Part shown: positions 3,211 through 54,600 of the stretch, in pieces
How positions within the stretch are numbered: the first letter of the stretch is position 1
Layout: the number at the start of each line of letters is the position of its first letter
Assembly: GCA_000092065.1 (NCBI GenBank)
Contig: CP000582.1
From: Ostreococcus lucimarinus
Lineage: Eukaryota
Length of the DNA: 64,000 bases
Direction: 5' to 3' (one strand)
Position numbers and translations under genes: made by a program
Notes under the pieces: model-generated
What the model was told of the DNA's origin: nothing
The model's input: only the letters and a program-made list of their open reading frames with translations
Databases searched by the model: none

Positions 3211-3242
3211 GTTGATCATTTTAGAGTTTGAAGCTTTCATGT

Positions 3243-5231: not shown

Positions 5232-5338
5232 ACTATTTTGTAGAGTATCTTTGATTTATAACGAGCGGCCTCGATTATGTCCAGTAACGCTAAAAAACGT
5301 GCGAGGCGCCAAGGACGAGCATCACTTCGAAGCGCTTC

Positions 5339-5729: not shown

Positions 5730-5902
5730 GCACTGGTCTAAAGATCCTGAGATGAAATAACTACTCCTGGATTACCATATACTTTTTTTTGTAATCACAG
5801 ATCGTGAAAAATTGTATACCAGCCAACTTCAAGCAGCAGCGCATGGAAATTTCATCTAAAAAGTCTATGCGCCAAAATAACTGTGCTCGTGGTGTGCTGC
5901 TG

Positions 5903-7570: not shown

Positions 7571-7947
7571 GTTGACTGTGACGTAACATTAGATGGCATG
7601 AACAGGACGAAGGAAAACTAGGTGGCTTACGATGCAGAACACTTGCGCGAACTACTAAAACTATCATCGTAGTTGTAGCGGGCCGGCGCCTTCCAGTTAC
7701 ACAGTTACTGTTTCTCAGTTTCAGAGGCGACTGCAAAAGTATGCTTATGTCTACAGCTACATATGATATAGACCCATAGAGTAGTCGTAGGAAAGCTAAA
7801 CCCTCCTTCTCCCACCCCCGAGCGATAGAGGTAGTCGCTATAGGCTAGAGCTAGTACGCCTTCGTTCAGGAAGCTGTATCATTGCACGAAGCAATCAGAC
7901 GCGCAGTTTGTGGAGAGACCTGAAAGCCATCGCGCGCCGTTCTCGAC

Positions 7948-8413
7948 ATGGGCGCCAACCGTTCTGCATCTGAGGTCCGAAAGTTGGCTGAAGCTCCGTT
8001 AAACTTTGGCAAGGGCTCCCGCGCTTGTCTTTATTGCAAGCTAGTTCAGACGTACGAGCAGGTAAGTTGCTCACATACATTCGTTGTCTACTGAGTAACT
8101 GGACAATTTAAGTTCATCGACAACGGGTGCGGAAACTGTGTTACTTTGAACATGAAGGGGGACAAGGATCGTGTATCTGAACTAACAACGTCAAATTATT
8201 CTGGGTACGATGATCAGTCGCTTCTCCATTCTACACATTGAATATTCCTCAGGATGGTGTCACTATTAGATGGACGCGCGTCCTGGGTCGGCAAATGGCT
8301 AAGACTAGGTACTTGTGCTGAATGTTGAGACTCTCCTGGCTGATCACGCAACAGATACCTGTGTTCCTGGTTGTTATGCCCTTAGTTTGCATAGTTCTAC
8401 GTCCATTCGATGA
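7948..8413 (+). CDS. SPT4: Transcription elongation factor SPT4 (DSIF small subunit). Four exons: 7948..8061, 8113..8204, 8253..8308, 8355..8413.
   Basis: Spliced product is MGANRSASEVRKLAEAPLNFGKGSRACLYCKLVQTYEQ / FIDNGCGNCVTLNMKGDKDRVSELTTSNYS / G MVSLLDGRASWVGKWLRL / D TCVPGCYALSL... This is collinear with the SPT4 zinc ribbon (RACLLCSLVKT..FEYDGFENC..LQMKG...DSWVSKWQR..KPGVYAVSV). Introns of 51, 48, 46 and 46 nt (GTAAGT, GTACGA, GTACTT donors) are phase-consistent. The last exon and stop are tentative. Confidence 0.7.
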
Positions 8414-35066: not shown

Positions 35067-35519
35067 AAGAAAGCGGTTTGTGCTCGAGTTCGTGACATCG
35101 CGTAGTATTGTCAGGTGTCCCTAATTGAGAGCAAAACATGAGAAGATGCGGTTTTGCGTTGTTTTAACATCCGTACCGATTCGTCCACTACACCAGGAAC
35201 CATGTCGCGCCACGAGACTCCGTTTTTTTGAATTTGCCGACTTTCACTGCGACTGGCGAACGGTAGAGGGACCGCAGAGCGACGAAGGAGCGACGAAGGA
35301 GCGATCGTAGATCGTAGATTGCGTCCTCTGCAAGACCGCAAATGTCTTAAGGAATCGAGCTTGTGTAACGTGTTGCGATGTGAGTCGTCTGCGATTTTGA
35401 ACGGCGGGGTTCGTTTCGTTCCCAGCACGGAAAAATTTATATATCGCCCCTTTAGAGAGTACCTACACACATGACGAGTCATGAACCGTGGATATATACG
35501 TATTTTACACCGTTTAGTT

Positions 35520-36086
35520 CTAAAAGTTTGATTCTACAACATCTACGAGGTACTTACTAATGCTAATTTGCTCGCCTTTGCTTGCCTTGCGTTTGTGTTC
35601 ATCGACCATCTTCTCGTGCCAGCCCCTCTTCCTGCTCAACGCCGTATCACCCGCCGCGCCTCTCATAGGAATCGCAACCAGGTTCGACATACCGAGCACA
35701 CCATCGCCGTCCATTTTGCTATTCTTGGACATGTTTTGAGACATCTCTCTGTGTGTCTTCAAGTTGTGCATGAAACGTTGAAGTTTGTCGAGCGCGTCTG
35801 TGATGTGTGCGGCTTCATCAGGCTCGAACGTAAACTCCGGATCGAGTGCGAGTTGTATCATCTCGGTACACGATTGAACCCAGCGTGACTTTACACTCAC
35901 GTTGTCGAAAGCTGCTCCAAGGCTTCTCCGATGAGTTGGTAGAGAGGCTTCAACATTATCTGGAATCGCTGGAGTCACGTGTCTCCTGGAATCGCTGGAG
36001 TCACGTGTCTCCTGGAGCCCGGACGATACGTGAAGAGCATCACCGAACGGATCGTCGAAGGGATCATCGTCGCACTCGTCTTCCAT
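35520..36086 (-). CDS. Hypothetical acidic 188-aa protein encoded inside the TIR element. No recognisable domain.
   Basis: The ORF exactly fills the space between the two TIRs. Its reading frame passes through a 26-bp tandem duplication (35960..36011), which is read in two different frames (ETRDSSDS | RRHVTPAIP). The ORF is therefore either recently frameshifted or fortuitous. Confidence 0.3.
   Translation of the reverse strand: MEDECDDDPFDDPFGDALHVSSGLQETRDSSDSRRHVTPAIPDNVEASLPTHRRSLGAAFDNVSVKSRWVQSCTEMIQLALDPEFTFEPDEAAHITDALDKLQRFMHNLKTHREMSQNMSKNSKMDGDGVLGMSNLVAIPMRGAAGDTALSRKRGWHEKMVDEHKRKASKGEQISISKYLVDVVESNF
35960..36019. repeat. 26-bp direct tandem duplication (ctggaatcgctggagtcacgtgtctc x2 plus a partial third copy)
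   Basis: Two perfect copies at 35960..35985 and 35986..36011 are followed by ctggagcc. The unit length is not a multiple of three, so the duplication shifts the frame of the enclosing ORF. Confidence 0.8.
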
Positions 36087-36445
36087 CCGACCATCGCCCG
36101 CACGCGCGACGACAACTGGCGCGACAGGCGTGGAAAAGACACGAGGCGAACGTGTTTTTCACCAAGGTAGGAATACTCTATTGTAGATGGCACTAAACGG
36201 TGTAAAATACGTATATATCCACGGTTCATGACTCGTCATGTGTGTAGGTACTCTCTAAAGGGGCGATATAAATTTTTCCCCCCGAACGCGTTTTTTGAAC
36301 GCGCCGGGGTTTAGCGAAACGCGATGGCGCAACCGTCGCGTTCGCGCGCCCGCCAGTGCGCGGTGCGGCCGCGGCCGCCCGCGGGTGCGCGTGAGTAGTT
36401 CGAGGTGATTCCGACGCGTCGCGTCCGCACGTCGTCGCGCGCCGA

Positions 36446-38239
36446 ATGCCTCGCACGTGCGTGTGCACGAACCCGAACTGCGACAAAGATGTCGAGCGAT
36501 TCGCGTTCCAACTCGGCAAGCACTGGAAAGACGACGTGCTCAAATCGATTCTATCGAGTCTCAGACCCGGAGCGGATGCTGATGACGTAGAAAAATACTT
36601 TTTGCGCGCGATGACGAAGCCCGATGGTGTTCGAGTGTCCTCGCAGCACTTCTTCTGGTACCATTTAGCATGGTCTCGAGGAGACCGCCCGAAGCTGGTC
36701 TTCAAAGATGGCGCGCACGTCCGGCCGACGTACATGCTCCATTCGAATCGGCCGACGTACGCGGGCGAACGAATCGTCGATCCGGCTCGTGTAGAATGTT
36801 TATCACCGCGCGAGACGCGTCTGCGCGTGAAGGCGCCGGCACGGGCGCCCCTTTCAGAGATTTCAAATTTGAATGAGGACGACGTGCATGCGACACAAGC
36901 TGGTGTCAGAGTTGGGATTAAACGGCGACGATCTGCTCCTGCGGCAATTTGCTCGCACAATCGCGCGCAAAACATGTCTTTGAACTCGTTTGAACGGGGA
37001 AGGCCGGGGGAAGAGACGTGCCGCGTGCAAGAAGGGACTATCCACAAGTTACGCTGTGATGAGTTGAAGTTGAGCGAGGCGCTGCGGGAAGAGCGTCAGC
37101 ACGCAGACGACGCGCGCGAGGACGTTCGTTTGCTCACGGAAGAACTTGAACGTATTCAAGAAGAAATGCACGACCAGGATCGAAAATCCTCGTTCGTAAC
37201 TATGCGATACTTGCGGGCGACGAGAGCTAGTGATAAGCAAATCAAAGCGCTTACTGGGTGGCCAACTTTGAAAACATTCGATGCTTTGTGGCGTTTCGTC
37301 AACGCGGGCGACCGCAATGCGACGCAAAACTTGTCGATTGTCAAACGAAAATGGAGGGGCGATTCGACGAGCGCGACGGGTTCGCATGGAACGGTCGTTC
37401 CGCGGAAAAAGAGCTTCAAATGGGAAGATGTATTTTTGGCGTGGTGGATGAGAGCGAAGATGGACTTGACCGCGGATCAACTTGCATACTTCGTCGGAAT
37501 ACACAAATCGACGCTTACACGTGCGCTACATCAAATGACATCATTTTTAACGGTTTTTATACGTGCTTACGGTGGCGACCCGATCGATCCCGAATGGATC
37601 CAGATGACAACAGGGGAGGATTGGAAAGAAGCATACGGGCAGAAACCTTATGAGATTATCGACGTGACTGAAGTGCCCATGGAGACTCCAGATGACCCAT
37701 ATATGCAGCGTTTGTTTTACAGTCATTATAAGAAGCGCTACGTGTGCAAATTTCTTGGCGCCTGTCACTCAAATTGTCTTGCCGCTTTCTGTTCAGTTGG
37801 GTTCCCTGGATCCATTTTTGACAATGAAATTTGCTTTGCTGGAAAGGATCATCCGATGCTTAATCATGCGGTACACCGAGCCAGCATCCGCCGGAGGACG
37901 TTCACAGACGAGAACGACGAAAATGTAGTCGTTCCCGAAACAATTGCAGCTGATCGTGGCTTTTGCGAAGGGTTGAATAGACAGTTTGAACGGGATGCGT
38001 TCAGGCTTGTGCACCCTGCGTTTTCAAGAGGCAAGAATGTGGCCTTCTCCAAGGAGGACATTCTCGACACCAGGGCGCAAGCATGTCGCCGAGTGCTAAT
38101 TGAAAATGCTTTCGGTCGCGTCAAGACGATTTGGAAGCGTATGCGCGGTCCAATAGCTATCTCCAAGCTGAAATCGGTGCATCAGGAGTGGCCAATAATA
38201 TTTTTCCTAGCGCTAGATTTACAAGCTTCGCTAAGGTAG
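36446..38239 (+). CDS. PIF/Harbinger-type DDE transposase (DDE_Tnp_4) with a long Cys-rich/coiled-coil N-terminal extension. GC about 60%.
   Basis: A 597-aa ORF, real ATG at 36446. The C-terminal half has an HTH plus the Harbinger catalytic triad context: YEIIDVTEVPMETP (D1), IAADRGFCEGL (D2), VLIENAFGRVKTIWKRM (E, the VENxFGxLK motif). The N-terminus has CVCTNPNCDKD and a charged coiled coil (ELKLSEALREERQHADDAREDVRLLTEELERIQEEM). It is strongly GC-enriched relative to flanking host genes. Confidence 0.75.
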   Translation: MPRTCVCTNPNCDKDVERFAFQLGKHWKDDVLKSILSSLRPGADADDVEKYFLRAMTKPDGVRVSSQHFFWYHLAWSRGDRPKLVFKDGAHVRPTYMLHSNRPTYAGERIVDPARVECLSPRETRLRVKAPARAPLSEISNLNEDDVHATQAGVRVGIKRRRSAPAAICSHNRAQNMSLNSFERGRPGEETCRVQEGTIHKLRCDELKLSEALREERQHADDAREDVRLLTEELERIQEEMHDQDRKSSFVTMRYLRATRASDKQIKALTGWPTLKTFDALWRFVNAGDRNATQNLSIVKRKWRGDSTSATGSHGTVVPRKKSFKWEDVFLAWWMRAKMDLTADQLAYFVGIHKSTLTRALHQMTSFLTVFIRAYGGDPIDPEWIQMTTGEDWKEAYGQKPYEIIDVTEVPMETPDDPYMQRLFYSHYKKRYVCKFLGACHSNCLAAFCSVGFPGSIFDNEICFAGKDHPMLNHAVHRASIRRRTFTDENDENVVVPETIAADRGFCEGLNRQFERDAFRLVHPAFSRGKNVAFSKEDILDTRAQACRRVLIENAFGRVKTIWKRMRGPIAISKLKSVHQEWPIIFFLALDLQASLR

Positions 38240-40336
38240 ATTCCGCGTCTCGCACGCGTCTGTAACCCTGTGTAAAGTACATTTGTGATTGTTCTCTTTT
38301 TCATATACGTCGAAATACTCCCTGAGAAGTGTTGATGGCTTGTTTCGCGACCACATCGCGCTTACATCAGGTGCAACTTCAGGGAGCTCCAAATCACCGT
38401 CACCGCGAGTGTCCACAGTGCATCGTCGCTTTGCGCGCCCAGCTTCGAATCGATTAAAGTCAATGTTGCTAAGAGGATTTTTGCGATTCATCGGATCCCC
38501 TTCGCCACTCGTGCCGAACCACTCACTTTCGAGCGACGTGCATGGATCAGCTGGTCGTTGCAACTTGGCAAAATACCAGAGCGCTGCGATGACATGGATG
38601 CACCCTCCGAAGTCTCCGCCCGCTCCCGCCTTGCACGCGCACGTCCCACGCTCGACACTGACGACATGGTCATGGACATGTTCATTCGTTTCTTCGTCGA
38701 TGCACCCATACTTGCATAACAAGCATACAGCGACGGCATAACGCTCTGCTTTGAGTGATGCCGGAATACCAACTCGGAACCACACGCGGAAGTGAGTTTG
38801 CATCCACGGATGCCCCACGTGCGCAAAACGAATCGGAAGGGGCGTCCGGGCGTGTATTCGTGCGTATCCTTGTCGATACGCTTTGGATCGAACCGGGTCG
38901 CCGTAAACGGACATCCCCGCGAGCCACGTCGTGATGATGTCCTCACCCATAAGCGGTGACGTCTCGCGGAAAAGCTCAACGTCAGTGCTCCACACTTCAG
39001 CATCCATTGGTGCGTCCAGATCGGGATCTAGCTCAGGGAATTGCGTCACCGGAAGATGAAAATGATGAACCAAATATGTATGAAGACTTTTCCCTTCTGG
39101 ATCCTGGACGTCGCCGTCGACGTCGATATCTAGCTCCTCGTACCGACGCTCAAGCTCCATCCTCTGTATGACCTCTGAGATGATGACATCTTTGTCCCGA
39201 ATATCCTGACATCCGCGGCGGCGATCGTTCCTACGCACGTTCAGCCAACGTATTAAATCCGATTTGGAGTTGTCCTCGACTCTCTTTTCCGGTAAAACGG
39301 CGCCTTTGATGAGATACTTGGGGATTCGTCTCGCCCGTGTTTCACCATGTCTAAAAAGGGCAGCCACTGCAACCAATTCAACGGGTTCGTGAGTATCCGC
39401 ATCGCGCAAACCTAAAGCGAATTCTTCGTTTTCTGAGTGATTTGCGTTGAATATGGTTGCGTCATTGAGCCAGCGTCTCTCTTTCGTCCGCATATCGTAC
39501 ACGATTGCTCGCTCAAAGCCCGCCAGGCTTTCCTCAAGTTTGAGAATTTGCGTGTCCTCATCACTCGCGTCGACGACGTCCTTCTTGACGAGGTATTTCA
39601 CAAAAGAGCGGATACTGAGAGTCTCTGCACTCTGTATGCACGCTACAATGGCTTTCAGAGCCGTTTGGGGTCCAAGTCCGGGAACTTTCCCCTCCCTGTA
39701 ATCACACCCGCTCGCCGCCGCCCACAAGCGCATGGCGGCGTCGCCGTGCATGCACATGAGCTCCGCAACTGTGTTCACCTCGTTCGTGTCTACCGGCATC
39801 CTCAGGTTGTTTCTGTTAAAAACGTTGCACTTTAACGTCGAAACGCTCCAAGACACCTTGTGGACGACCTTGGCGCACCCGAGCACCACTGCATCTGTGT
39901 CATCCGTCAACACGAAATCAACGAGACCACTCGACTCCATGTACTTCAACTGGTGATCTGATTCGTTTGGCGCCACGACGTACACGAATCCACGCTTCCG
40001 CACTTCATTCAGTATCCGAGGCAAATAACATCGTTCGAATTTTTCACCTATCGTACCTGCTCGCTTCGCGTGCGTCTCCTTCTTGTGTGCAGTCCTCGCA
40101 CCGTCGAAAACAAGGACTGGGAAGACACCTGCATTCACGAGCTTCGTAGCGCGCGAAATGACCGTTTCTACAGACGAATCCAGTTTATCCTGAACAGAAC
40201 CAGTTTTTCGCATCGCCCACCCCTGGTGTATCCAGATGTTTGCGTCTACCCCCGCTTTCGCGTTGGCGAACTCGCCGCCGATGGACGTGCGGACGACCGC
40301 ATCGTCGAACGCTTTCCACCCTGCGTCGACGCCCAT
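38231..40336 (-). CDS. XPG/FEN1-family structure-specific nuclease (XPG-N, XPG-I, H3TH) fused to a C-terminal SWIM-type zinc finger. GC-rich, convergent with and overlapping the transposase 3' end by 9 bp.
   Basis: Product is MGVDAGWKAF...AGVDANIWIHQ (XPG-N), VFDGARTAHKKETHAKR, VVAPNESDHQLKYMESSGLVDFVLTDDTDAVVLG (XPG-I with acidic catalytic residues), GCDYREGKVPGLGPQTALKAIV (helix-3-turn-helix), ... CLLCKYGCIDEETNEHVHDHVVSVERGTCACKAGAGGDFGGCIHVIAALW (a CxC-x9-CxH SWIM pattern). The ATG at 40336 gives the canonical MGV start of XPG-family proteins. The track start at 40354 is a TTG. Confidence 0.7.
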   Translation of the reverse strand: MGVDAGWKAFDDAVVRTSIGGEFANAKAGVDANIWIHQGWAMRKTGSVQDKLDSSVETVISRATKLVNAGVFPVLVFDGARTAHKKETHAKRAGTIGEKFERCYLPRILNEVRKRGFVYVVAPNESDHQLKYMESSGLVDFVLTDDTDAVVLGCAKVVHKVSWSVSTLKCNVFNRNNLRMPVDTNEVNTVAELMCMHGDAAMRLWAAASGCDYREGKVPGLGPQTALKAIVACIQSAETLSIRSFVKYLVKKDVVDASDEDTQILKLEESLAGFERAIVYDMRTKERRWLNDATIFNANHSENEEFALGLRDADTHEPVELVAVAALFRHGETRARRIPKYLIKGAVLPEKRVEDNSKSDLIRWLNVRRNDRRRGCQDIRDKDVIISEVIQRMELERRYEELDIDVDGDVQDPEGKSLHTYLVHHFHLPVTQFPELDPDLDAPMDAEVWSTDVELFRETSPLMGEDIITTWLAGMSVYGDPVRSKAYRQGYARIHARTPLPIRFAHVGHPWMQTHFRVWFRVGIPASLKAERYAVAVCLLCKYGCIDEETNEHVHDHVVSVERGTCACKAGAGGDFGGCIHVIAALWYFAKLQRPADPCTSLESEWFGTSGEGDPMNRKNPLSNIDFNRFEAGRAKRRCTVDTRGDGDLELPEVAPDVSAMWSRNKPSTLLREYFDVYEKENNHKCTLHRVTDACETRNLP

Positions 40337-40672
40337 ACGCACCAGAATTTGCAAACACGGCTACAACTCGATCAGAAATACATTTTGTCACCTGTTCATG
40401 TGCCTCCGCGATGCCCGACGCGCGTGCGCGCCACGACAGCAGCGTGAAAGTGACGGGGATGCGCGACGGGCCGAGCGAGTTCAAAAAAAGGACGAAAGGG
40501 CACCGGATTCGAGGTTTTCGTCGACAGTGGGTCATGACGAGTCACAAACGTTCGACTTAAATATGTAAAATGATAGGAAAACCTTAATGCAATGGGTCAT
40601 AATAGCTGAATATATATGGTTTCTCGTCGTAATGGACAAAAGTTGCTTTCATAAAAATAAGGATGTAGTTGT

Positions 40673-40789
40673 TACTGAGAGTGGGGTTCGAACCCACGCA
40701 GTCAATGACTACCAGAAATCTCACCAGTTTTTTCGGTGAAGCTTATTCGCACTTGAGTCTGGCCCCTTAGACCACTCGGGCATCCCAGC
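40673..40789 (-). tRNA. tRNA-Leu (anticodon CAA) with a 33-nt intron in the canonical position 37/38
   Basis: Minus-strand read is GCTGGGA-TG-CCC-GAGTGGTCTAAG-GGG-G-CCAGA-CTCAAG-[tgcgaataagcttcaccgaaaaaactggtgagat]-T-TCTGG-TAGTCATTGACTGC (long type-II variable arm) -GTGGG-TTCGAAC-CCCAC-TCTCAGT-A. The acceptor stem pairs with two G-U wobbles. D-loop GAGTGGTCTAAG is typical of Leu/Ser tRNAs. The T-loop is TTCGAAC. There is no encoded CCA. Confidence 0.85.
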
Positions 40790-42646: not shown

Positions 42647-45600
42647 GTGACATATGACATCGTATTACAACGTTTTACCCCCACTTCGCAAGGACCGACC
42701 ACCCCATATCCATGTGCTATAAAAGCTAACTCAAAATGGAAGCTCGTACGTCTGAAACGCTTGGCGCTCGAGCGTTTCCGATGTCCGATGTTAACGCGCC
42801 ACAAACCGGAGAGCGTTCAGAATGGTACGCCCCGAAATGAATCACGAATGAGCAATCTAGACACACGCGCTATGTCGAACCCTTACTTTCAGGTCGGGCG
42901 ATGGGACTGCACGGACGAGCTCGAGGGGTGTCAATTCTCCGCGCCACATACGTCGGTGTCAGTTCCTAATTTCGAAGAGATTCAGACCCTTCACTACACC
43001 TGCGTGTATGAAGTGGCGATCACGTGTACACAGCGGCATGATATGCATAACGATGAGTTCGCGCATGTACTTAGTTCTGTCATCGAGCTCGCAAATCGCG
43101 TTGACCTGACACGACTTAGGCAACATCACTCCATAGATAACTTTGCCACACACGTTCTCACTTTTCGGTTCATTCTGGACCTGTTGAGGCAAACTTATCA
43201 GGAATACATCAAAGGAAGCATAGAAAATAATTCGTTTGAGCATGTCGAATTTACTTTCAACAATTGCATGGATGGTACGCACGGAATGGCAACATGCTTT
43301 AAACCGAATAAAAAGCATAGTCACCTTTGTTACATTTTGGATATTTCGCAGGCAGAAAGAAGTTGCAATGGTCGTACTGATGACACAAAATGCGTGCACG
43401 ACAAAATTACTATGAACGATCGCGTTCTTTCCGCGGCTAAGATCCCAGACAACGCAGTGAATAAACAATTCAGTGCTAGTATACTCAATGATGTGTATGG
43501 TTTCGATTCAAGTCTGTTCCATATTTCTCAGTCGGAAACCCTCTGCATGGACCCACAACAACGACTATTACTTCTTGCAGCAGCAGACTTATACCTGAGT
43601 AACACACGTGTTTGTCAACACGACGACTCCTTCTGCGTGCACGTCGGTGTATCGTGGAATGACTTTGAGGAAATTCGCAGAAAGTATAGTGCAGACTTTT
43701 TCTCCACTTATGATTCGACGGGAACATCAATAAGTGTCGCATCGGGTAGAATTGCGTATTATTTTGATTTCAAAGGGTGTGCTGTGACGATTGATACGGC
43801 TTGTTCATCATCTTTGGTTGCGTTGCATCAATCCATGTACGCAGCTGGCTCGCTCCGTGAATCAAGTGCACTTGTATGTGGCATCAACTTGATTTTGACA
43901 ACCACGATGACACATCGATTTCAGCTTGCTGGAATGATGTCTTCAGAGCATCGATGTATGACATTTGATGCACGCGCGGATGGCTACGTCCGGAGTGAGG
44001 CATGCAACATCGTACTCTTACACTTCAATGGCTTCACAAAAACTCATAGGAATGTACTGCGGCATGACGTTCATATGTCATGCGTCGTCAATCAAGATGG
44101 AACATCAACTGGACTTACGGCACCTAATGGAACAGCTCAGCGGAACCTGATGAATGAGTTACTATCGGACGTTTATAACCCTTCAAAACACGTTGGTGCT
44201 AAAATACATGCCCACGGCACAGGTACGCCTCTTGGGGATCCGATAGAGGTGTTTGCTATCAATTCTGCCCTCTCGTTTTCGTCACTGTGCAGGCTGTATG
44301 TGTCAGAAAAGTCGATGCGAGGGCACACAGAACCTGCTTCAGGTCTATGCAGCACCATACTTGCTTTCGTATCAGGTGCACAGTGCAAGCTACATGGTCA
44401 ACCACATTTACAGCAGTTAAACAATCATATACTAACATCGGTTGATGAAAGTATTTTTCAGCGTTCACTGCATTCCAGTTTTCCCTTAACTTCTATGGCG
44501 AGTGTCACCACAGTAAGCTCCTTCGCGTTCCAAGGGACGAACGCAATGGCTTCACTGACATATATCGACAAATGCAGTATTAGAGTGATTCGCAACACGT
44601 CAGGTCTGAGATCTTTGGTCAAGTTGGAGACTGAATCCCCTGTAAGACTCCCGTACACATTTTCTTGCCTTAGCATCGTCAATGGGAAAATGATACAGCT
44701 AACTTCAATGATTCACGACAAAACATTGAAGCGACTTTTGGATCATCGTGTAGCTGATATGCATCTTATGCCAGCCACAGGCCATCTTGAACTTGAAAGA
44801 GAGCTCACGAAGTGCGCTCTCGTAAGGAATGAACCATATCTTCTGACAAAGATCGCATTTATGCTGCCTCTCAAGCTTGATGAAAGCAATCAACTTATCA
44901 CAGAGATGAACACACATGGTCGCTTACGCGTTGGATGTGGCTCTGGCATATCCAATTACTGGTGTAGTACTGCACGACTTCAAATACCAGTAGGACGTGC
45001 CTGGTGCACGGACCGTACTTTTTATCTGACTAGTAAACTCGTTTCTCGGCGTTTCAAAGGTGCGACCGCAACAATAGCAGGGACGACGCCAATTCTCGAT
45101 TCACAAAATGTCGTGAATCCGTGTATCCAGGATGCGAGTCTACAATGCTCTGCATACGTCTTGAACACGTCAGCTTTCGCATCTGATACAACCTACATGG
45201 ACTGCGTATCGTTACTTAAGCTACCAACAACAATTCAAGACGTCATAGTTGTTAATCAGACAGGAAAAATACTTGTTAGATCGACGCATGTTGACATGTT
45301 GCAGAAGACGCAGCATGTGACTGAAAGTAATAACTCTGTCACAAGTAACTCTTCGAGTAACAATAAAACGCAGACATGGATACATCGTTTACTGTGTAAA
45401 GTATCAACCGTACGGATGAAAGCTGGCTTACGCACTCGCACATGCTTGGAACTCGCGAGATTGTTGTACCACGCGAGACAACAAAGAGTGCTGATATCAA
45501 ATATGCAAAACTTGCGTGAAGTAGGCAGTTTACATGCTCCAGAACTGATGCCCATCATGCGCGAAATGGGTCGTAAGTCAATGCAAGATATTAATTCGGC

Positions 45601-48600
45601 TAGTGCCTCTCTTTGCGCGGTTGCGCTGCTGCAGGCTTGCGGCGCTCGTGCGCGCGTTTCCGGCGCCCACGTGCGTGCAAACGACATCGTCCACGAGGAC
45701 GCTTCGGCCGCGCCCGCAGTCTGTGGATCGTGCGTGCGCGCCACCGTGCAATCTTCCGCGCAGGAACGCAGCGAGCCATTGGTGCTGAGTGTCGCGAGCG
45801 CCCCGCACACCGCGCCAGCCCGAGCGTTGCGATCGATCGCCGCCGGGGCGTCGATCGCCGGGGCGCTGTGCGTTGAGCGGCTGCTTCCGGCGTTCGGTCG
45901 CCGGACGCCCGCCGCGTCGCGCGACGGCGCGGCGACGACCACGGCGTCGCCGGCACCGAAAGTCTCGAGCGTGTTCGTGACTGGCGGTCTGGGCGCGTTG
46001 GGTCAGACTTCGGCGGCGTGGTACGCGCATCGAGGCGTTCGCCACGCCTACTTGACTGGTCGCCGCGGGCGCGGAGAGTCCCTTCTGCTGCGATGGTCGT
46101 CGCGCGGCGGTACCGACGTGAGCGCATTGCACGTGCTTCGCGTCGACGCGTGTGCGACCGACGAGGCGTCGTACGGCGGTGCGCGCGCGCACGCGCGCGT
46201 GCGCGCACACGGCGTGCTGCACGCGGGCGGCGTGCTACGCGACTCTTTGACTGCTCGCCAATCCGCGTCGGCCCATCGATACGTGTGGTCGTCCAAAGTA
46301 GTGTCCGCGCACGCATTGCTCCGCCAGTGCGTCGGCGTCGAGCGCGGCGCGCGTCACATCGCGCTGTTCTCGTCGGTGGCGGCGCTGCTGGGGAGTCCAG
46401 GGCAATGCAACTACAGCGCGGCCAACGCCGCGCTGGACGCGCGAGCCGCACACGAGTGGTGCCGCGGGTACGCGGTGCAATCCGTGCAGTGGGGCGCGTG
46501 GGACGGCGCGGGAATGGCGCTGACAAACGCGTCTGTACTCAGGAACGCGCGCACGACAGGCATCGGCGTGCTCGATCCGCAAGCCGGGCTCGGGGCCGTA
46601 CACGTCGCGCTTCAGGGCGCATCAGTGACGGGTCGCTGGCGGGCAATCCAAGGCGTCCTGGCCGTCGTCCCGTTCCAGTGGTCCGTGCTCGCGCGCGCGC
46701 AGCGCTCGCGCGCGCTGATTGCGGAGTACCGCGCGGAGTCGGCGCGGTCGAGCGCTCCAGTCGCCGTCCATCCGGGCGCCGAGGAAGACGCGGCGCGCGA
46801 TGTGTCAGATGAGAGCGTGCGGCAGATCGTGGCCTCCGCCGTGACGCGCGCGCTCGGCAGAGACGTGTCGGTGGACGCGTCGCTCATGGAAGAGGGCCTA
46901 GACTCGCTCGCGGCGGTCGAGCTCGGAGGGGCGTTACAAAAGGAAACGGGCGTGAACATGCCGGCCACGCTGGCATTTGACTACCCGACGATCACCGCGA
47001 TATCTGGGTACCTGAAGGGTGCGATGCTGGCGCGATCGCGTGCGCGCCAATCGAGCGGCGCGGCGTCCAGCGCCGCTCGCACGCGCGCCGCGAGCGGCGC
47101 GGTCGCGCATTCGCGCGACTCGATGCCAGGTATTGCATCCAACGCGCGCGAAATCTTGGGTCTTGCGCCCGTTGTTATGGCCATCAGACGGAGCGTGCGA
47201 CGACTCGACGCGGATGATCGAGAGCCAAAGCCTGCTCGACATGGCGGCTCGGCGTTGTTTTCATCGTTCGTGAGGTGCGTCATGGCAGAGCGAGCCTCTG
47301 AAGATCGCTTCGACACGCCATCGTTGGGCAGGCAGCCGAGCGCGACAGCGCGCGTGGTCTCCTTGACGAAAGCCAGAGATTTCACTACACAAGCTCTCGA
47401 CAGCATGCCGAAATGCAACGAGATTGAGCTGAGCGTCGTCAGCGCTGTGTCGAGTAAGGCATCAGGCGCGCACGATGCCGTGCGTGTGAACAACATGCGA
47501 CATGCGTGCGGCGAAGTGTGTGATCCACAAAGCTCAAAATCGCACGAGTTCGTCGCTCGGCGTCTTGTGCAGTTTGGGTACTTCATCGAGCGCAGCTTGT
47601 TTGACGGGGAGCAGTTCTCCGTAACGGCGCACGAGGCGCGGTTGATGGACCCGCAGCAGCGCGTGCTCCTGGAGAACGCGCTCGCCGCGACGAGTGCGAC
47701 GCCGCACAGCGCGCCGAAGCCAGCCACAGCCGTGTCCGTCGGCGCTTGGACGTCTCAGTACGCAGACATGTGCCGCGTGTACGAGCCAACGCCGGGGCCG
47801 TACTCTGGCGTTGCTTCCGCCTTGAGCGTGCTGTGCGGTCGCGTATCGTACACGTTTGGTATGCGTGGCCCGTCCGTGTGTGTCGACACCGCGTGCTCCT
47901 CCTCGCTCGTGGCCGCGCATGTTGCGAGCTCTCACTTGCGCGATGGATCGTGCGAGGACGCCCTCGTCGCCGGCGTGAGCGTGAACGTCGGCATCGGCAC
48001 CTTCCTCGTGGCCACCGCCGCGAGCATGCTATCGTTCGATGGTCGGTGCAAAACCTTGGATGCCAGCGCCGACGGTTACGCCAAGGGCGAGTGCTGCGTG
48101 GTCCTGCGCGTGTCGGTGGACGGGGCGAGCGCTGGAGCGCCCAAAGCGCCCGATCTTCCAAACGCCGAGTCTCCCTCTCTCGCTCTTCTCGAACAGACCG
48201 GTGTGAACCAGGATGGACGGTCGAGCTCGCTCACCGCACCAAACGGGCCGTCGCAGCAGGCACTCGTGGCCGATGCGCTTCTCCGCTCGGGGCTGCACGG
48301 CGACGCGCTCGGCAGGCTGGAGATGCACGGCACGGGTACTTCGCTGGGAGATCCGATAGAGGTCGGCGCCGCGCTTGAGGTTCTCGCGCCGCCGACGCGC
48401 GCGGACCGGGCGCCGTCCAGGGGCCCCGCGCTCACGCTTGAGGGCGTGAAGCCACGCGCTGGCCACTGCGAACCAGGGGCTGGCGCGGTTGGGTTGCTGT
48501 TTGCGATGGCAAACTTGACGGAGCGAGCCGTCGCGTCCCTCGTCCACCTGCGCCAGCTCAACCCTCACGTCGAGGCCGCGACGCGCCGAAACGCACCGTC

Positions 48601-51600
48601 GCCGCATGCGCGCGCGCCGGTGCTCGCGCGACAAGGCATGCCGCGACCGGATGACGGCGCGTCTGAGGCTGGAGCAGCGGACGCTGCTCGAGCGCGCGTG
48701 CGGCGATCCGGCGTGAGCGGCTTCGCGTTCCAGGGCACAAACGCGCACGCAATCATGGCCCGGGGACCCGGACAGGCGACTGCGCCCGGGTACACGGGAA
48801 GCACGCACACGGCGGCGCGTGCGTGGGAGCGTCAGCGCCACTGGTGCGCGCCAGAACGGCACTGCCTCATCGAGTCCGTGCGCGCTCTGCATCCTCGCGA
48901 GGGAGACTCGAGCGCGTTGGCGCGGTCGTGCGTGCGCCTGTGTCGGTCCGCGTCGCTCGCTGGCATGCTTGATCACGCCGTCGGGCTCCGGACGCTGCTA
49001 CCAGGCACAGCGCACGTCGAGATATGTCGAGCCATGGCGGGCGCGCTGGCAGACCAGCCGCTCGCCGACATCTCGCTGTCGCACGTATCTTTTGCAGCGC
49101 CCCTCGAGCTTCGAGCGCCGACGACCGACGTGCTGTGCGACGTCACGCCGCAAGGCGTGGCCCGCGTGGGCGTGCGCGTGTCGTCGTCCTCTGCCGCCGC
49201 GCCGTTCCTCGCGGGCGCGCTCAGCCGCAGAAGCGCCTCAAGAATTACTGCGTCTCCGGCGCACCTCTCGCGAGGACCGGCGATGCCCGCGCTGGACGTG
49301 CAGCCTTGTGTTCACGGCGCGAGCTGGCTGCGCTCGTCGCAGCGACGAGGCCCGGGCGCGGAGCACCGCGTGTACGGCGACATACGCGCGCGTCAGATGT
49401 CCACGCTGTCGGCTGCGGCGTATCACTCGCCGCCCGCAGTGCTCGATGCCGCGCTGCACGCGCTCAGCGCGTGCGCGCCGCCGCCGGGTAGCGATGCGAC
49501 AGAAGAGAGCCCGCACGTCCCGGCCACGATCGGCGGCGTCCGCACGCGAGGCGGGCACTCGGACATATACCGCGCCCGGTTCGCGCTCGCGACGGCTCCG
49601 CCTGAGCGCGGGGAGCGGAACGCGTCCACGCGCAGATCTCGTCACCACCTGTGGGACTGGTCGAGTCTTTCGGCGGCGCATCGAGGGTGCGTGGTGCACG
49701 CGCTGGAGTCTCGACGACTCGGTGGCGCCGCGGTCGTGCGCTCGCGAGCACAACAGCGCTCGAGGGCACCGCCGCCGCGTCGCGCGGCCGCGCCGCGTGT
49801 GCTTTATGGAGTCGGGCAACAGCGCGCGTGCGGCGCGGCGGATGGCCAGGGCGCGCGTCGACGCTCAACCCTCAACTCGCAGTGCTTTGTGGACGACGCG
49901 TCGCACCGCCGCGAGCTGATGGAGACCCACGCGTCACCATCGATCGCGCAAGGCAGCACGCGAAGCAGCACGCGCGCCTCTCTTTGCGCGGTTGCGCTGC
50001 TGCAGGCTTGCGGCGCTCGTGCGCGCGTTTCCGGCGCCCACGTGCGTGCAAACGACATCGTCCACGAGGACGCTTCGGCCGCGCCCGCAGTCTGTGGATC
50101 GTGCGTGCGCGCCACCGTGCAGTCTTCCGCGCAGGAACGCAGCGAGCCATTGGTGCTGAGTGTCGCGAGCGCCCCGCACACCGCGCCAGCCCGAGCGTTG
50201 CGATCGATCGCCGCCGGGGCGTCGATCGCCGGGGCGCTGTGCGTTGAGCGTCTGCTTCCGACGTTCGGTCGCCGGACGCCCGCCGCGTCGCGCGACGGCG
50301 CGGCGACGACCACGGCGTCGCCGGCACCGAAAGTCTCGAGCGTGTTCGTGACTGGCGGTCTGGGCGCGTTGGGTCAGACTTCGGCGGCGTGGTACGCGCA
50401 TCGAGGCGTTCGCCACGCCTACTTGACTGGTCGCCGCGGGCGCGGAGAGTCCCTTCTGCTGCGATGGTCGTCGCGCGGCGGTACCGACGTGAGCGCATTG
50501 CACGTGCTTCGCGTCGACGCGTGTGCGACCGACGAGGCGTCGTACGGCGGTGCGCGCGCGCACGCGCGCGTGCGCGCACACGGCGTGCTGCACGCGGGCG
50601 GCGTGCTACGCGACTCTTTGACTGCTCGCCAATCCGCGTCGGCCCATCGATACGTGTGGTCGTCCAAAGTAGTGTCCGCGCACGCATTGCTCCGCCAGTG
50701 CGTCGGCGTCGAGCGCGGCGCGCGTCACATCGCGCTGTTCTCGTCGGTGGCGGCGCTGCTGGGGAGTCCAGGGCAATGCAACTACAGCGCGGCCAACGCC
50801 GCGCTGGACGCGCGAGCCGCACACGAGTGGTGCCGCGGGTACGCGGTGCAATCCGTGCAGTGGGGCGCGTGGGACGGCGCGGGAATGGCGCTGACAAACG
50901 CGTCTGTACTCAGGAACGCGCGCACGACAGGCATCGGCGTGCTCGATCCGCAAGCCGGGCTCGGGGCCGTACACGTCGCGCTTCAGGGCGCATCAGTGAC
51001 GGGTCGCTGGCGGGCAATCCAAGGCGTCCTGGCCGTCGTCCCGTTCCAGTGGTCCGTGCTCGCGCGCGCGCAGCGCTCGCGCGCGCTGATTGCGGAGTAC
51101 CGCGCGGAGTCGGCGCGGTCGAGCGCTCCAGTCGCCGTCCATCCGGGCGCCGAGGAAGACGCGGCGCGCGATGTGTCAGATGAGAGCGTGCGGCAGATCG
51201 TGGCCTCCGCCGTGACGCGCGCGCTCGGCAGAGACGTGTCGGTGGACGCGTCGCTCATGGAAGAGGGCCTAGACTCGCTCGCGGCGGTCGAGCTCGGAGG
51301 GGCGTTACAAAAGGAAACGGGCGTGAACATGCCGGCCACGCTGGCATTTGACTACCCGACGATCACCGCGATATCTGGGTACCTGAAGGGTGCGATGCTG
51401 GCGCGATCGCGTGCGCGCCAATCGAGCGGCGCGGCGTCCAGCGCCGCTCGCACGCGCGCCGCGAGCGGCGCGGTCGCGCATTCGCGACGTACAACCATTA
51501 CTCAGCTCCCTCGTCTACGTCTATCATACGTTCCGCATGAAGTCAGCCGACGAACGACTCTTGGCATTAGCGGTCAATATTCTCACGAGCTTAGACACTT

Positions 51601-54600
51601 TAGCTCTGCGGGACCTTCGACCAGTAACTTTGAGGGAGTCCTCTTTGTTCGCATTCATAACTCCACCAAGCCCTTACCCGTGCATCCATATTTCATTGGC
51701 AACTTTTTGCGTTGTGACGAACTCGAGTTCGGCTTGTTTGGCGCACCGCACAGCGAATGGACTACTCTGGACGCGCGGCAGATTCTCTTGATTGAGAGTG
51801 TACACACTATCCAGCTGAACAACAGTTCAGACGTTTCATTGCGCACTCTAGAGACGACGGCTGTTCTTGTTGGAGCACAAGCGGTAGATTCAACTGACGA
51901 GCATAGCGTTGAGATACAGTACAACGCCTACTCTGGCGTTGCTTCCGCCTTGAGCGTGCTGTGCGGTCGCGTATCGTACACGTTTGGTATGCGTGGCCCG
52001 TCCGTGTGTGTCGACACCGCGTGCTCCTCCTCGCTCGTGGCCGCGCATGTTGCGAGCTCTCACTTGCGCGATGGATCGTGCGAGGACGCCCTCGTCGCCG
52101 GCGTGAGCGTGAACGTCGGCATCGGCACCTTCCTCGTGGCCACCGCCGCGAGCATGCTATCGTTCGATGGTCGGTGCAAAACCTTGGATGCCAGCGCCGA
52201 CGGTTACGCCAAGGGCGAGTGCTGCGTGGTCCTGCGCGTGTCGGTGGACGGGGCGAGCGCTGGAGCGCCCAAAGCGCCCGATCTTCCAAACGCCGAGTCT
52301 CCCTCTCTCGCTCTTCTCGAACAGACCGGTGTGAACCAGGATGGACGGTCGAGCTCGCTCACCGCACCAAACGGGCCGTCGCAGCAGGCACTCGTGGCCG
52401 ATGCGCTTCTCCGCTCGGGGCTGCACGGCGACGCGCTCGGCAGGCTGGAGATGCACGGCACGGGTACTTCGCTGGGAGATCCGATAGAGGTCGGCGCCGC
52501 GCTTGAGGTTCTCGCGCCGCCGACGCGCGCGGACCGGGCGCCGTCCAGGGGCCCCGCGCTCACGCTTGAGGGCGTGAAGCCACGCGCTGGCCACTGCGAA
52601 CCAGGGGCTGGCGCGGTTGGGTTGCTGTTTGCGATGGCAAACTTGACGGAGCGAGCCGTCGCGTCCCTCGTCCACCTGCGCCAGCTCAACCCTCACGTCG
52701 AGGCCGCGACGCGCCGAAACGCACCGTCGCCGCATGCGCGCGCGCCGGTGCTCGCGCGACAAGGCATGCCGCGACCGGATGACGGCGCGTCTGAGGCTGG
52801 AGCAGCGGACGCTGCTCGAGCGCGCGTGCGGCGATCCGGCGTGAGCGGCTTCGCGTTCCAGGGCACAAACGCGCACGCAATCATGGCCCGGGGACCCGGA
52901 CAGGCGACTGCGCCCGGGTACACGGGAAGCACGCACACGGCGGCGCGTGCGTGGGAGCGTCAGCGCCACTGGTGCGCGCCAGAACGGCACTGCCTCATCG
53001 AGTCCGTGCGCGCTCTTCATCCTCGCGAGGGAGACTCGAGCGCGTTGGCGCGGTCGTGCGTGCGCCTGTGTCGGTCCGCGTCGCTCGCTGGCATGCTTGA
53101 TCACGCCATCGGGCTCCGGACGCTACTACCAGGCACAGCGCACGTCGAGATATGTCGAGCCATGGCGGGCGCGCTGGCAGACCAGCCGCTCGCCGACATC
53201 TCGCTGTCGCACGTATCTTTTGCAGCGCCCCTCGAGCTTCGAGCGCCGACGACCGACGTGCTGTGCGACGTCACGCCGCAAGGCGTGGCCCGCGTGGGCG
53301 TGCGCGTGTCGTCGTCCTCTGCCGCCGCGCCGTTCCTCGCGGGCGCGCTCAGCCGCAGAAGCGCCTCAAGAATTACTGCGTCTCCGGCGCACCTCTCGCG
53401 AGGACCGGCGATGCCCGCGCTGGACGTGCAGCCTTGTGTTCACGGCGCCATCAGACGGAGCGTGCGACGACTCGACGCGGATGATCGAGAGCCAAAGCCT
53501 GCTCGACATGGCGGCTCGGCGTTGTTTTCATCGTTCGTGAGGTGCGTCATGGCAGAGCGAGCCTCTGAAGATCGCTTCGACACGCCATCGTTGGGCAGGC
53601 AGCCGAGCGCGACAGCGCGCGTGGTCTCCTTGACGAAAGCCAGAGATTTCACTACACAAGCTCTCGACAGCATGCCGAAATGCAACGAGATTGAGCTGAG
53701 CGTCGTCAGCGCTGTGTCGAGTAAGGCATCAGGCGCGCACGATGCTGTGCGTGTGAACAACATGCGACATGCGTGCGGCGAAGTGTGTGATCCACAAAGC
53801 TCAAAATCGCACGAGTTCGTCGCTCGGCATCTTGTGCAGTTTGGGTACTTCATCGAGCGCAGCTTGTTTGACGGGGAGCAGTTCTCCGTAACGGCGCACG
53901 AGGCGCGGTTGATGGACCCGCAGCAGCGCGTGCTCCTGGAGAACGCGCTCGCCGCGACGAGCGCGACGCCGCACAGCGCGCCGAAGCCAGCCACAGCCGT
54001 GTCCGTCGGCGCTTGGACGTCTCAGTACGCAGACATGTGCCGCGTGTACGAGCCAACGCCGGGGCCGTACTCTGGCGTTGCTTCCGCCTTGAGCGTGCTG
54101 TGCGGTCGCGTATCGTACACGTTTGGTATGCGTGGCCCGTCCGTGTGTGTCGACACCGCGTGCTCCTCCTCGCTCGTGGCCGCGCATGTTGCGAGCTCTC
54201 ACTTGCGCGATGGATCGTGCGAGGACGCCCTCGTCGCCGGCGTGAGCGTGAACGTCGGCATCGGCACCTTCCTCGTGGCCACCGCCGCGAGCATGCTATC
54301 GTTCGATGGTCGGTGCAAAACCTTGGATGCCAGCGCCGACGGTTACGCCAAGGGCGAGTGCTGCGTGGTCCTGCGCGTGTCGGTGGACGGGGCGAGCGCT
54401 GGAGCGCCCAAAGCGCCCGATCTTCCAAACGCCGAGTCTCCCTCTCTCGCTCTTCTCGAACAGACCGGTGTGAACCAGGATGGACGGTCGAGCTCGCTCA
54501 CCGCACCAAACGGGCCGTCGCAGCAGGCACTCGTGGCCGATGCGCTTCTCCGCTCGGGGCTGCACGGCGACGCGCTCGGCAGGCTGGAGATGCACGGCAC

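Follow-up and report, generated by a model that had tools for sequence, protein, structure and literature searches.

The locus considered here lies in a 64,000-nucleotide stretch of Ostreococcus lucimarinus DNA (contig CP000582.1; the window in what follows), where a foldback structure of about 850 bp stands directly before a transposase gene, and the question is what this structure is and what it owes to its neighbour. A sequence-only reading had proposed three possibilities: a non-autonomous derivative mobilised by the neighbouring transposase, the true 5' end of a larger composite element, or an unrelated nested insertion. The comparison of many copies favours the last of them. With a probability of about 0.88, the structure is a non-autonomous, internally deleted member of an Ostreococcus Mutator-like (MULE) cut-and-paste family, nested in an unrelated PIF/Harbinger-like transposon. 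The proteins of the window match O. lucimarinus CCE9901 entries exactly, on chromosome 2 and in a known transposon-rich region. A giant PKS ORF begins at 42647, ~6 kb downstream, and between 34 and 42 kb Rfam identified a tRNA and ARAGORN none.

The boundaries of the element were set by comparing flanks across many copies, with the break invariably at GGAAAAATTT.../...AAATTTTTCC, so that the true ends are GG...CC and the MULE spans 851 bp (35429..36279, coding orientation on the minus strand). The end proposed earlier is thus correct, whereas the start, given as 35430, was 1 bp off. The inverted repeat that had been described as 88 bp and ~98% identical is indeed present. The terminal inverted repeat (TIR) on the ORF 3' side is 90 nt long (35429..35518) and its outer end adjoins host DNA (...CCCAGCAC); the one on the ORF 5' side (36192..36279) is the 88-nt short form, minus one TA, and its outer end adjoins the Harbinger leader. 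According to the measurement, the two arms of the window are 86-90 nt long and 97-98% complementary, the sole difference being a 2-bp TA indel near the outer end; in loci L001, L002 and L003 both arms are of the 90-nt form and 100% identical to each other. Exactly two occurrences of a 47-nt arm core are present in the window, against none expected from 100 shuffles, and no tandem subrepeats were detected by TRF inside either arm. Two distances had been misjudged: the GC-rich leader of the neighbouring gene begins at 36280 immediately, and not 10 bp further on, and the transposase ATG (36446) is 166 bp past the element end. Neither is the whole interior one ORF, since the ORF occupies only 567 of the 673 internal bp; between it and the TIR lies a 5' untranslated or subterminal region (36087..36191, minus strand), recognised by its match to the 5' end of a longer relative, L060.

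Far from being confined to the window, the TIR is present at many other places, and the search for further copies that the sequence-only reading had suggested returned many. In marine metagenome contigs, the terminus GGAAAAATTTATATATCGCC is invariant across copies and is followed by 28 distinct 15-nt flanks, and a 24-mer of the TIR core matches 34 metagenome stretches. No match to this core was found in viral contigs, and there was no sign of a prasinovirus-borne copy. L002 and L003 contain the same MULE (853 bp, ~99.6% identical) with flanks different from those of the window, and copies are found at many sites without a Harbinger nearby. Examination of the flanks for target-site duplications (TSDs), also proposed earlier, gave a positive answer for other copies and a negative one for the window. 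A 9-bp TSD could be read at L006 (CTCTTGACG), at the site common to L005, L014, L028 and L037 (CTCTCAGAA) and in L061 (AACGCGTTT, the two copies lying on a single 531-kb contig); the TSD at L013 is of 8 bp, and several paired copies have none. Around the window MULE, the left flank ...CCCAGCAC (...TTCCCAGCAC) and the right flank CCCCGAACGC... form no direct repeat. Because of this missing TSD, the insertion of the window copy cannot be read directly and a secondary deletion has to be invoked. Derivatives with deletions were observed at shared flanks (221 bp in L004/L030 and 268 bp in L034), and in L014 a solo TIR remnant of 65 bp remains between the TSD copies. The earlier claim of recent activity is supported, though not by the TIR identity from which it had been deduced: what speaks for it is that ~99.6% identical copies occupy different loci, that presence or absence varies between assemblies, and that deletion derivatives and remnants occur at shared sites.

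The interior of the element was then related to a transposase. ORF188 (188 aa, 35520..36086, minus strand) is the exact sequence of XP_001416425.1, an O. lucimarinus 'predicted protein', and consists of the first ~33 and the last ~146 residues of the family Ulp1-MULE transposase, with no catalytic domain. Its residues 43-180 align with residues 512-648 of protein P0035 (55% identity, E 3e-46), and its N-terminus matches that of P0044. A Pfam search of ORF188 gave no match, and its alignment to P0035 falls only outside the PF10551 region (P0035 aa 122-220). Together with its relatives, ORF188 forms a nested series of 34 proteins with common N- and C-termini. At the junction of the internal deletion lies an exact 26-bp tandem duplication (35960..36011; TRF 2.2 copies, 100% match), as had been reported, although its effect is the opposite of the frame scrambling first attributed to it. 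By shifting the frame, the duplication joins the N- and C-terminal pieces of the transposase into a single ORF, intact from ATG to stop; when one 26-mer is removed, the N-terminal frame ends in ...DSSDSR and a stop codon. Likewise, in L007 the 26-mer is single and the frame is broken, while the duplication is present in the window, L002, L003, L028 and L037.

The assignment to the MULE superfamily passes through P0035, which carries a PF10551 MULE domain (44.7 bits, cutoff 27.6) plus PF21056; P0003 is 71% identical to it over the full length of P0003. Pfam searches of the L022 ORF and of P0003, P0012, P0030 and P0033 gave no informative match, so the MULE link is made via P0035 only. P0044 carries a Peptidase_C48 domain (PF02902, 67.6 bits), which the window copy is without. 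Because P0044 overlaps the N-terminus of P0035, the protease and the MULE DDE domain appear to be fused in one ORF; the full-length family protein would be of ~1,360 aa and would read, in order, an acidic N-terminus, a zinc-finger-like region, Ulp1/C48, MULE DDE, a SWIM-like motif and a C-terminal tail. The 5' end of L060, environmental Ostreococcus DNA, is 98.9% identical to the window element over 277 bp spanning the TIR, the leader and the ORF start, and continues into an open 784-aa ORF that runs off the contig. The P0035-type loci L040-L049 were considered as the autonomous element and rejected: a frameshift interrupts them, the counterpart of P0044 residues 269-622 is missing, and no 5' TIR could be detected. 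None of the loci fetched contained an intact autonomous element bounded by both TIRs; such a copy may still exist.

The neighbour of the MULE is of another superfamily. Copies elsewhere and an empty allele delimit a 5'-truncated PIF/Harbinger-like element (36280..40598, plus strand) composed of a leader, a DDE_Tnp_4 gene, a convergent XPG/SWIM gene and a 3' TIR. The transposase gene (36446..38239, plus strand, 597 aa) gives PF13359 DDE_Tnp_4 at 65.8 bits (cutoff 24.8) and is the exact sequence of XP_001416176.1 (OSTLU_119558). The second ORF (38231..40336, minus strand, 701 aa as called) has XPG_N and XPG_I nuclease domains and a C-terminal SWIM-like zinc finger, the SWIM match being weak; no Myb match was found in it. 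A pattern search allowing up to 3 substitutions located the 3' TIR, CCTTAATGCAATGGGTC, at 40582..40598 and no 5' partner in the window. The Harbinger TIRs, 17 bp long (GACCCATTGCAYTAAGG), are unrelated to the MULE terminus, and 16 of their 17 positions pair in L002 and L061. The Harbinger unit is found in L002, L004 and L061 with 99.1-99.8% identity and other flanks, and L061 holds a complete element with both TIRs at 2849-8153. A 3-bp TSD was sought in four AT-rich palindromic flanks (L002: TATAATA|...|TATTATA), which revealed no unambiguous direct repeat.

Comparison of the Harbinger copies supports the nested insertion. In the complete ones (L002, L061, L030/L035 and L042), the Harbinger has its own TIRs and holds the MULE 102 bp inside its 5' end. 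At the window, the nonamer CCCCGAACG (36280..36288), in the Harbinger leader and with the same junction in L002 and L041, is probably the surviving copy of the 9-bp MULE TSD; L042 shows the partner copy, ...GTGCCCCGAACG|MULE, on the 5' side of the Harbinger. Among the copies, the leader has been struck by MULEs at two separate sites 5 bp apart. The MULE also occurs in both orientations at the same junction in two lineages, on different contigs and from different samples, mostly short-read metagenome assemblies. An empty allele, L051, shows that the window insert is 35429-40598, with its right boundary at 40598/40599. Two candidate structures were rejected around this insert. The stretch 35334-35428 (GACC...TAAGGAATC) had been considered as a diverged Harbinger 5' end, but the same stretch is found in L051 and is host DNA; the 64-77 bp in place of the insert (L051, L056 and L057; starting with GACCC) had been considered as a Harbinger-type MITE, but no other copy exists in any fetched locus and it was taken to be host sequence.

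These data bear on the other two readings of the foldback. That it might be a Tourist-like MITE or another non-autonomous Harbinger derivative, moved by the neighbouring DDE_Tnp_4 transposase, is suggested by the fact that the MULE adjoins the transposase leader in every Harbinger copy seen and by a 12-mer, CATGACGAGTCA, common to the MULE TIR and the Harbinger 3' subterminal region. Considered as a common transposase-binding site, however, this 12-mer was rejected, since 3 of 100 shuffles also reach 3 matches. The MULE copies occur at many sites without a nearby Harbinger and generate 9-bp TSDs rather than 3-bp TWA duplications, the termini of the two elements (GGAAAAATTT... versus GACCCATTGCA...) are unrelated, and the interior is homologous to a MULE-domain protein and not to Harbinger; mobilisation by the neighbour is already largely refuted and hardly credible. 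A somewhat different proposal is that MULE and Harbinger form one functional composite, with the foldback as real 5' end and 35429-40598 moving as a unit. Relative to the empty allele, the insert does run exactly from the outer end of the MULE to the 3' end of the Harbinger, so that the description as the 5' terminus of a larger element is adequate for the window allele, and the MULE-leader junction is identical at two Harbinger loci and in a lineage whose leader is only ~86% identical. Against it, complete copies have a separate Harbinger 5' TIR, which lies 102 bp outside the MULE and pairs at 16 of 17 positions with the 3' TIR, the ends of 35429-40598 are unrelated and have no flanking TSD, and the truncated form, from MULE end to Harbinger 3' end, is found at the window locus only. 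A composite moving as a unit is highly improbable.

It is also very unlikely that ORF188 is a real selected protein, for example a truncated-transposase regulator, or that the nested segment is invertible and works as an orientation-dependent switch on the Harbinger transposase. The form with the frame-restoring duplication is found at >=3 loci (that is, at least three) and in two sequence backgrounds, but one random indel in three would do the same. Values of dN/dS among close ORF188 copies are 0.44-0.54, but these come from 15-33 substitutions, with weak power, include history inside functional transposases and are accompanied by one value of 1.17. Several independent deletion derivatives are in frame and the exact ORF188 protein is present on many contigs, but in-frame derivatives are favoured by discovery, the searches having used called proteins, and ORF188 has no known domain. 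As for a switch, two lineages do show the MULE in either orientation at the one junction, but no recombinase gene is present: neither a serine nor a tyrosine invertase was found adjacent to the MULE, whose neighbours are DDE_Tnp_4, XPG and cyclin. In its most developed form, ORF188 would be a selected 'mini-transposase' modulating the Ulp1-MULE family in trans, while flipping of the segment in the Harbinger leader would alter expression of the Harbinger transposase; this is an unlikely conjecture which, if true, would give a minimal eukaryotic genome a regulatory module made of one transposon inside another.

For the non-autonomous MULE nested in a Harbinger, the following course of events is proposed. 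A microhomology-mediated internal deletion, with CCAGCG on both sides, would have removed nearly all of the transposase gene and left two ~90-bp TIRs, the 5' leader, and 33 N-terminal and 146 C-terminal codons out of frame. Slippage may later have duplicated 26 bp at the junction and rejoined the frames into the 188-aa ORF. The resulting element would not be self-mobile and would need the family transposase in trans, giving 9-bp target duplications. It would then have inserted in the GC-rich 5' leader of the PIF/Harbinger, at a site that the family struck at least twice, and the MULE-free ancestral Harbinger site is predicted to read ...TTCGCACCCGAACGCGTTTTTTGAACGCGCC.... Harbinger transposition may have carried the MULE along to where it now lies, with a cyclin gene on one side and a tRNA/kinase on the other. 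Judging from the empty allele and the complete Harbingers, the window copy would be without TSD because a later deletion beside the MULE end took the 102-bp 5' terminus of the Harbinger together with ~64-77 bp of host DNA. The interior is also flipped with respect to the remaining Harbinger copies, and the simplest cause would be that the 90-bp inverted repeats recombined with each other. Ordinary known mechanisms suffice for this history and a new one is unneeded.

The element is in many respects comparable to the maize Mu1-type derivatives of MuDR and to MULEs in general. It shares with them long TIRs (~90 bp here), 9-bp TSDs, an internal deletion, a presumed dependence on the family transposase in trans, and a coding relic homologous, in the present case, to a PF10551-bearing protein. 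Mu elements prefer GC-rich 5' regions of genes. In contrast, the TIRs are shorter than those of MuDR, and the element differs from Mu1-type derivatives in that its relic is an in-frame N+C fusion ORF, its host is a prasinophyte picoalga and its window copy is without TSD. In plants, Ulp1/peptidase C48 domains are a feature of the Kaonashi (KI) MULEs (Hoen et al. 2006, summarised in PMC6117577). By domain content, P0044, the long relative of the window MULE family with its Peptidase_C48, resembles them, but here the protease is apparently fused upstream of the MULE DDE in the same ORF and the window copy is without it. A preprint (bioRxiv 10.1101/2025.04.21.649811) reports MULEs, flagged by automated annotation, beside the giant PKS genes of BOC1, an outlier region of low GC and many TEs, in Ostreococcus tauri and further Mamiellales. 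They share genus, chromosome compartment and neighbourhood with the present family, and in the available text of the preprint no description was found of the TIRs, deletion series, Harbinger nesting or frame-restoring duplication of the window family.

The neighbour, for its part, agrees with PIF/Harbinger transposons by its DDE_Tnp_4 transposase, its short 17-bp TIRs and its two genes, but its second gene encodes an XPG/FEN-like nuclease with a SWIM-like finger and not the usual Myb/SANT-like protein. The likeness of the MULE to Drosophila Foldback (FB) elements is superficial: one fifth of its length consists of inverted repeats, which may promote inversions, but the arms of FB are built of short subrepeats in long tandem arrays and the arms here are of unique sequence. 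The KP repressors of the P element likewise result from an in-frame internal deletion of a transposase on a widespread non-autonomous copy, but KP retains the DNA-binding domain whereas ORF188 retains only 33 N-terminal residues and the C-terminal tail.

For the annotation of O. lucimarinus, it follows that the 'predicted protein' XP_001416425.1 is a transposase relic within a non-autonomous MULE, and that OSTLU_119558 belongs to a Harbinger whose 5' end is lost at the window locus. The locus would exemplify several ordinary processes side by side: a deletion series left by abortive gap repair, slippage that restores a frame, repeated strikes within one 5-bp interval, a nested element that travels as a passenger, and deletion next to an element. 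The MULE family is well delimited, with its TIR, TSD and deletion series and a candidate long form now on record; it has been active recently, and assemblies are polymorphic for it. In the low-GC outlier region of Ostreococcus chromosome 2, which is being actively studied, it is usable as a structural-variation marker.

The 851-bp element at 35429-36279 is bounded by inverted-repeat arms (35429-35518 and 36192-36279; 86-90 nt) with 97-98% complementarity, and the near-perfect TIRs of the sequence-only reading are real. The arms differ solely by one TA unit of a (TA)n stretch close to the outer end, neither arm contains subrepeats, and a 47-nt core of the arm occurred exactly twice in the window (0 expected from 100 shuffles). 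Between the arms, a 188-aa ORF (ORF188; 35520-36086, minus strand) runs from ATG to stop and matches exactly XP_001416425.1 of Ostreococcus lucimarinus CCE9901. The 26-bp tandem duplication announced at 35960-36011 is an exact repeat of CTGGAATCGCTGGAGTCACGTGTCTC. It had been thought to scramble the frame, and the reverse was observed: after in silico deletion of one copy, the frame starting MEDECDDDPFDD... stops at ...DSSDSR*. To the left of the element, the adjacent host DNA (35277-35319) contains a pair of short, perfect tandem repeats: (GAGCGACGAAG)x2.5 and (GATCGTA)x2.4.

The search for other genomic copies of the TIR was positive. A 24-nt TIR core matched 34 stretches of marine metagenome contigs, all of which share the terminus GGAAAAATTTATATATCGCC; the flanks diverge precisely at this terminus and 28 distinct 15-nt flanks were counted. 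The comparison loci (L numbers) are for the most part contigs assembled from short-read metagenomes of mixed Ostreococcus populations, and target-site duplications (TSDs) were read only where both ends fell on one contig or one site. They measured 9 bp in L006 (CTCTTGACG), at the site common to L005, L014, L028 and L037 (CTCTCAGAA) and in L061 (AACGCGTTT, both copies on one 531-kb contig), and 8 bp in L013 (TCGGATCG). This is the TSD length of the Mutator superfamily. The TSDs sought at the flanks were found for these other copies and not for the window copy, where none surrounds either the Mutator-like element (MULE) or the 5.2-kb unit to which it belongs. The same sites hold different derivatives in different samples: a full-length MULE in L007 versus a 221-bp derivative in L004 and L030, a 268-bp derivative in L034, and in L014 a solo 65-nt TIR fragment flanked by both TSD copies. 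Full-length copies at different loci are ~99.6% identical. Taken together, copy number, TSDs, derivatives at shared sites and this identity indicate a recently active cut-and-paste family.

In four copies, one TIR has its terminal 35-36 nt directly duplicated (L004 11474-11508, L061 3805-3839, L065 204-238 and L005 8586-8621, the last with CAGAA, part of the TSD, as spacer), which looks like a recurrent product of repair or aberrant transposition. Truncated solo TIR fragments (first 62 or 83 nt) were detected in L015 (13-74), L017 (449-510), L018, L023 and L025. Such fragments lie in tandem ~300 bp apart immediately upstream of an RCC1-repeat host gene, whose annotated 600-aa ORF begins within a TIR fragment; its 5' end or promoter may have been supplied by the MULE remnant.

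The origin of ORF188 was analyzed through a diverged MULE copy (L022, ~80% identical) which encodes a 339-aa version of it. A search with this ORF retrieved 34 metagenome proteins that share an N-terminus, MEDECDDDPFDDPFGDALHVSSGLQ, as well as a C-terminus, ...THRRSLGAAF...RKRGWHEKMVDEHKRKASKGEQIS, and make up a nested deletion series. One member, P0003 (439 aa), matches P0035 (649 aa) with 71% identity along the whole of P0003. P0035 contains the MULE transposase domain PF10551 (44.7 bits, Pfam cutoff 27.6), is also above the Pfam threshold for PF21056, and its residues 512-648 align directly to residues 43-180 of ORF188 (55% identity, E 3e-46). P0044 (784 aa) begins with the ORF188 N-terminus and carries a Ulp1/Peptidase_C48 domain (67.6 bits). 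Its final 73 residues overlap the initial 72 of P0035 at 66% identity; this overlap and the shared termini point to an ancestral protein that combined, in roughly 1,360 aa, a Ulp1 protease and a MULE transposase. Ulp1 domains are likewise reported in the Kaonashi MULEs of plants (PMC6117577). The contig encoding P0044 (L060) begins within the TIR and is 98.9% identical to the window MULE over 277 bp. This match, TIR included, reveals that a long form sharing this end is present in the environment; no intact autonomous element was recovered among the loci compared.

Conservation of the internal ORF was compared between copies. Three contigs with different neighbours encode an identical ORF188 protein, and an unrelated 233-aa ORF (MADTELMSLGEL...) between the same TIRs in L006 and L020 shows that internal content differs among copies. 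The L006 variant (1366-2499, 1134 bp) shares the 90-nt TIRs and the final ~115 internal bp; the L020 variant starts at 3317, the contig ending within the element, and the 5' TIR, flank and inner start at L032 3317 are the same as in L020. This ORF family (27 metagenome proteins) is conserved over its full length down to 45% identity, contains no Pfam domain, and may represent either a gene captured in the manner of a Pack-MULE or an accessory gene.

Multiple alignment of the copies placed the internal-deletion junction where N-side ...GACTCCAGCG is fused to C-side ATTCCAGATAATG..., with a CCAGCG microhomology seen in the longer L022 copy. In L007 the junction carries a single 26-mer and the N-terminal frame meets TAA. 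In the window, L002, L003, L028 and L037 the 26-mer is present twice, bounded by CCAG, and the frameshift caused by this doubling lets the N-terminal fragment continue into the native C-terminal frame. Other deletion junctions were observed in L013, L022 and the proteins P0012, P0015, P0028 and P0030. The dN/dS of ORF188 was 0.44-0.54 between the window and close copies (15-33 substitutions), 1.17 versus L022 and 0.27 versus the P0035-type copy. These values fit relaxed constraint together with an inherited transposase history, and a function of ORF188 is neither proven nor excluded.

The adjoining 597-aa protein, an exact match to XP_001416176.1 (OSTLU_119558), is a PIF/Harbinger enzyme (DDE_Tnp_4, 65.8 bits). 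Its unit (36280-40598: leader, transposase gene and convergent XPG_N/XPG_I and SWIM-like ORF) was found again in L002, L004 and L061 at 99.1-99.8% identity with different flanks. The second gene (38231-40336, minus strand; 701 aa) encodes XPG_N and XPG_I domains (FEN1/XPG-type nuclease) and a C-terminal SWIM-like CxCx10CxH motif, whereas the usual second gene of PIF/Harbinger is Myb-like. It overlaps the transposase gene by 9 bp, its product is 99.7-99.9% identical in every full copy (L002, L004, L061), and it could represent an unusual accessory gene of such an element. The 12-mer CATGACGAGTCA occurs in each MULE TIR and again in the 3' subterminal region of the Harbinger (35470-35481, 36229-36240 and 40533-40544), a sharing that is not statistically compelling (3/100 shuffles reach 3 hits).

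The Harbinger of L061 is complete, with 17-bp TIRs GACCCATTGCACTAAGG and CCTTAATGCAATGGGTC at 2849 and 8153, and holds the MULE 102 bp inside its 5' end, between perfect copies of the 9-bp TSD. In a more diverged lineage (leader ~86% and MULE ~68% identical to those of the window), L041 carries a long MULE at the identical leader position, ...TTTATCC|CCCCGAACGCG, and the Harbinger 5' side of L042 reads ...GTGCCCCGAACG|MULE. Taken together, both junctions imply that a second MULE insertion, with TSD CCCCGAACG, hit the leader 5 bp away from the first one. The right junction of the window (36279|36280 CCCCGAACG) belongs to the second insertion type. In L002 the left junction shows the first type and the right junction the second, giving an apparent 14-bp repeat that we attribute by inference to recombination between alleles. 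Both MULE orientations relative to the leader are present in both lineages (one in window/L001 and L042, the other in L002/L004/L061 and L041), opposite orientations being seen between contigs and not within a clone; inversion through recombination between the 90-nt arms would be the simplest explanation.

Among contigs encoding the exact cyclin protein, L051 lacks the insert and has a kinase-cyclin distance of 1 kb. It matches the window up to 35429 and resumes from 40600, with 77 unrelated bp between, so that the insert is 35429-40598, from the MULE outer end to the Harbinger 3' terminus. L056 and L057 contain a 64-bp version of this filler, which has no other occurrence in the fetched loci, and the window contains no Harbinger 5' TIR. 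In the most economical order of events, a Harbinger already carrying the MULE would have transposed into ...TTA|ATAATAGC..., and a single deletion from the MULE end would then have taken away the 5'-terminal 102 bp of the Harbinger together with 64-77 bp of neighbouring host DNA. The Harbinger at this locus is no longer excisable by its own transposase. The cyclin-kinase interval is a structural-variation hotspot: L056 (1-964), without insert, departs from the window (beyond 40615) right after AATAGCTGAATATATA into sequence absent from the window.

The ORFs around the MULE are eukaryotic in kind (cyclin, glutathione-reductase-like, XPG, kinase, giant PKS). XP_001416425.1 and XP_001416176.1 share one 895,087-bp record, taken to be chromosome 2, and the GC content of ~45% places the window, by inference, in its low-GC outlier part. 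This compartment is reported in a preprint to be transposon-enriched in Mamiellales, and giant PKS genes of O. tauri to be often flanked by MULEs (10.1101/2025.04.21.649811). The window PKS is a single ORF (42647-56623, plus strand; 4,658 aa, modular with KS, KR and PP-binding domains). About 10 kb of its interior, especially 45000-56000, has ~70% GC versus the ~45% background and contains repeated modules that are nearly identical; alignments of L001 and L051 fall there in several alternative registers, suggesting that module copy number varies between assemblies. Directly outside the Harbinger 3' end lies an intron-containing tRNA gene (40673-40789, minus strand; Rfam RF00005, 42.4 bits), overlooked by ARAGORN in bacterial mode. 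At the other Harbinger locus (L035 5715-5934, L061 1785-2004), an 86%-similar copy lies ~850 bp beyond the 5' end of the Harbinger.

Three origins had been proposed for the element. Mobilisation of a derivative by the neighbouring transposase is wrong, the features of Harbinger-derived MITEs being absent from the MULE, as are those defining the Foldback elements of Drosophila. The 5' end of a larger composite describes the truncated window allele (insert 35429-40598) and nothing beyond it. The third proposal, an unrelated nested insertion, is right. The family shows all the defining features tested for a non-autonomous MULE (long TIRs, 9-bp TSD, derivation from a PF10551 protein, catalytic domain lost); the missing TSD of the window copy is the sole exception, which the MULE-adjacent deletion would explain. 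MULEs have already been reported, in general terms, in the low-GC outlier compartment of Ostreococcus (10.1101/2025.04.21.649811), and the window MULE adds a new and well-characterised member to this already known element type.
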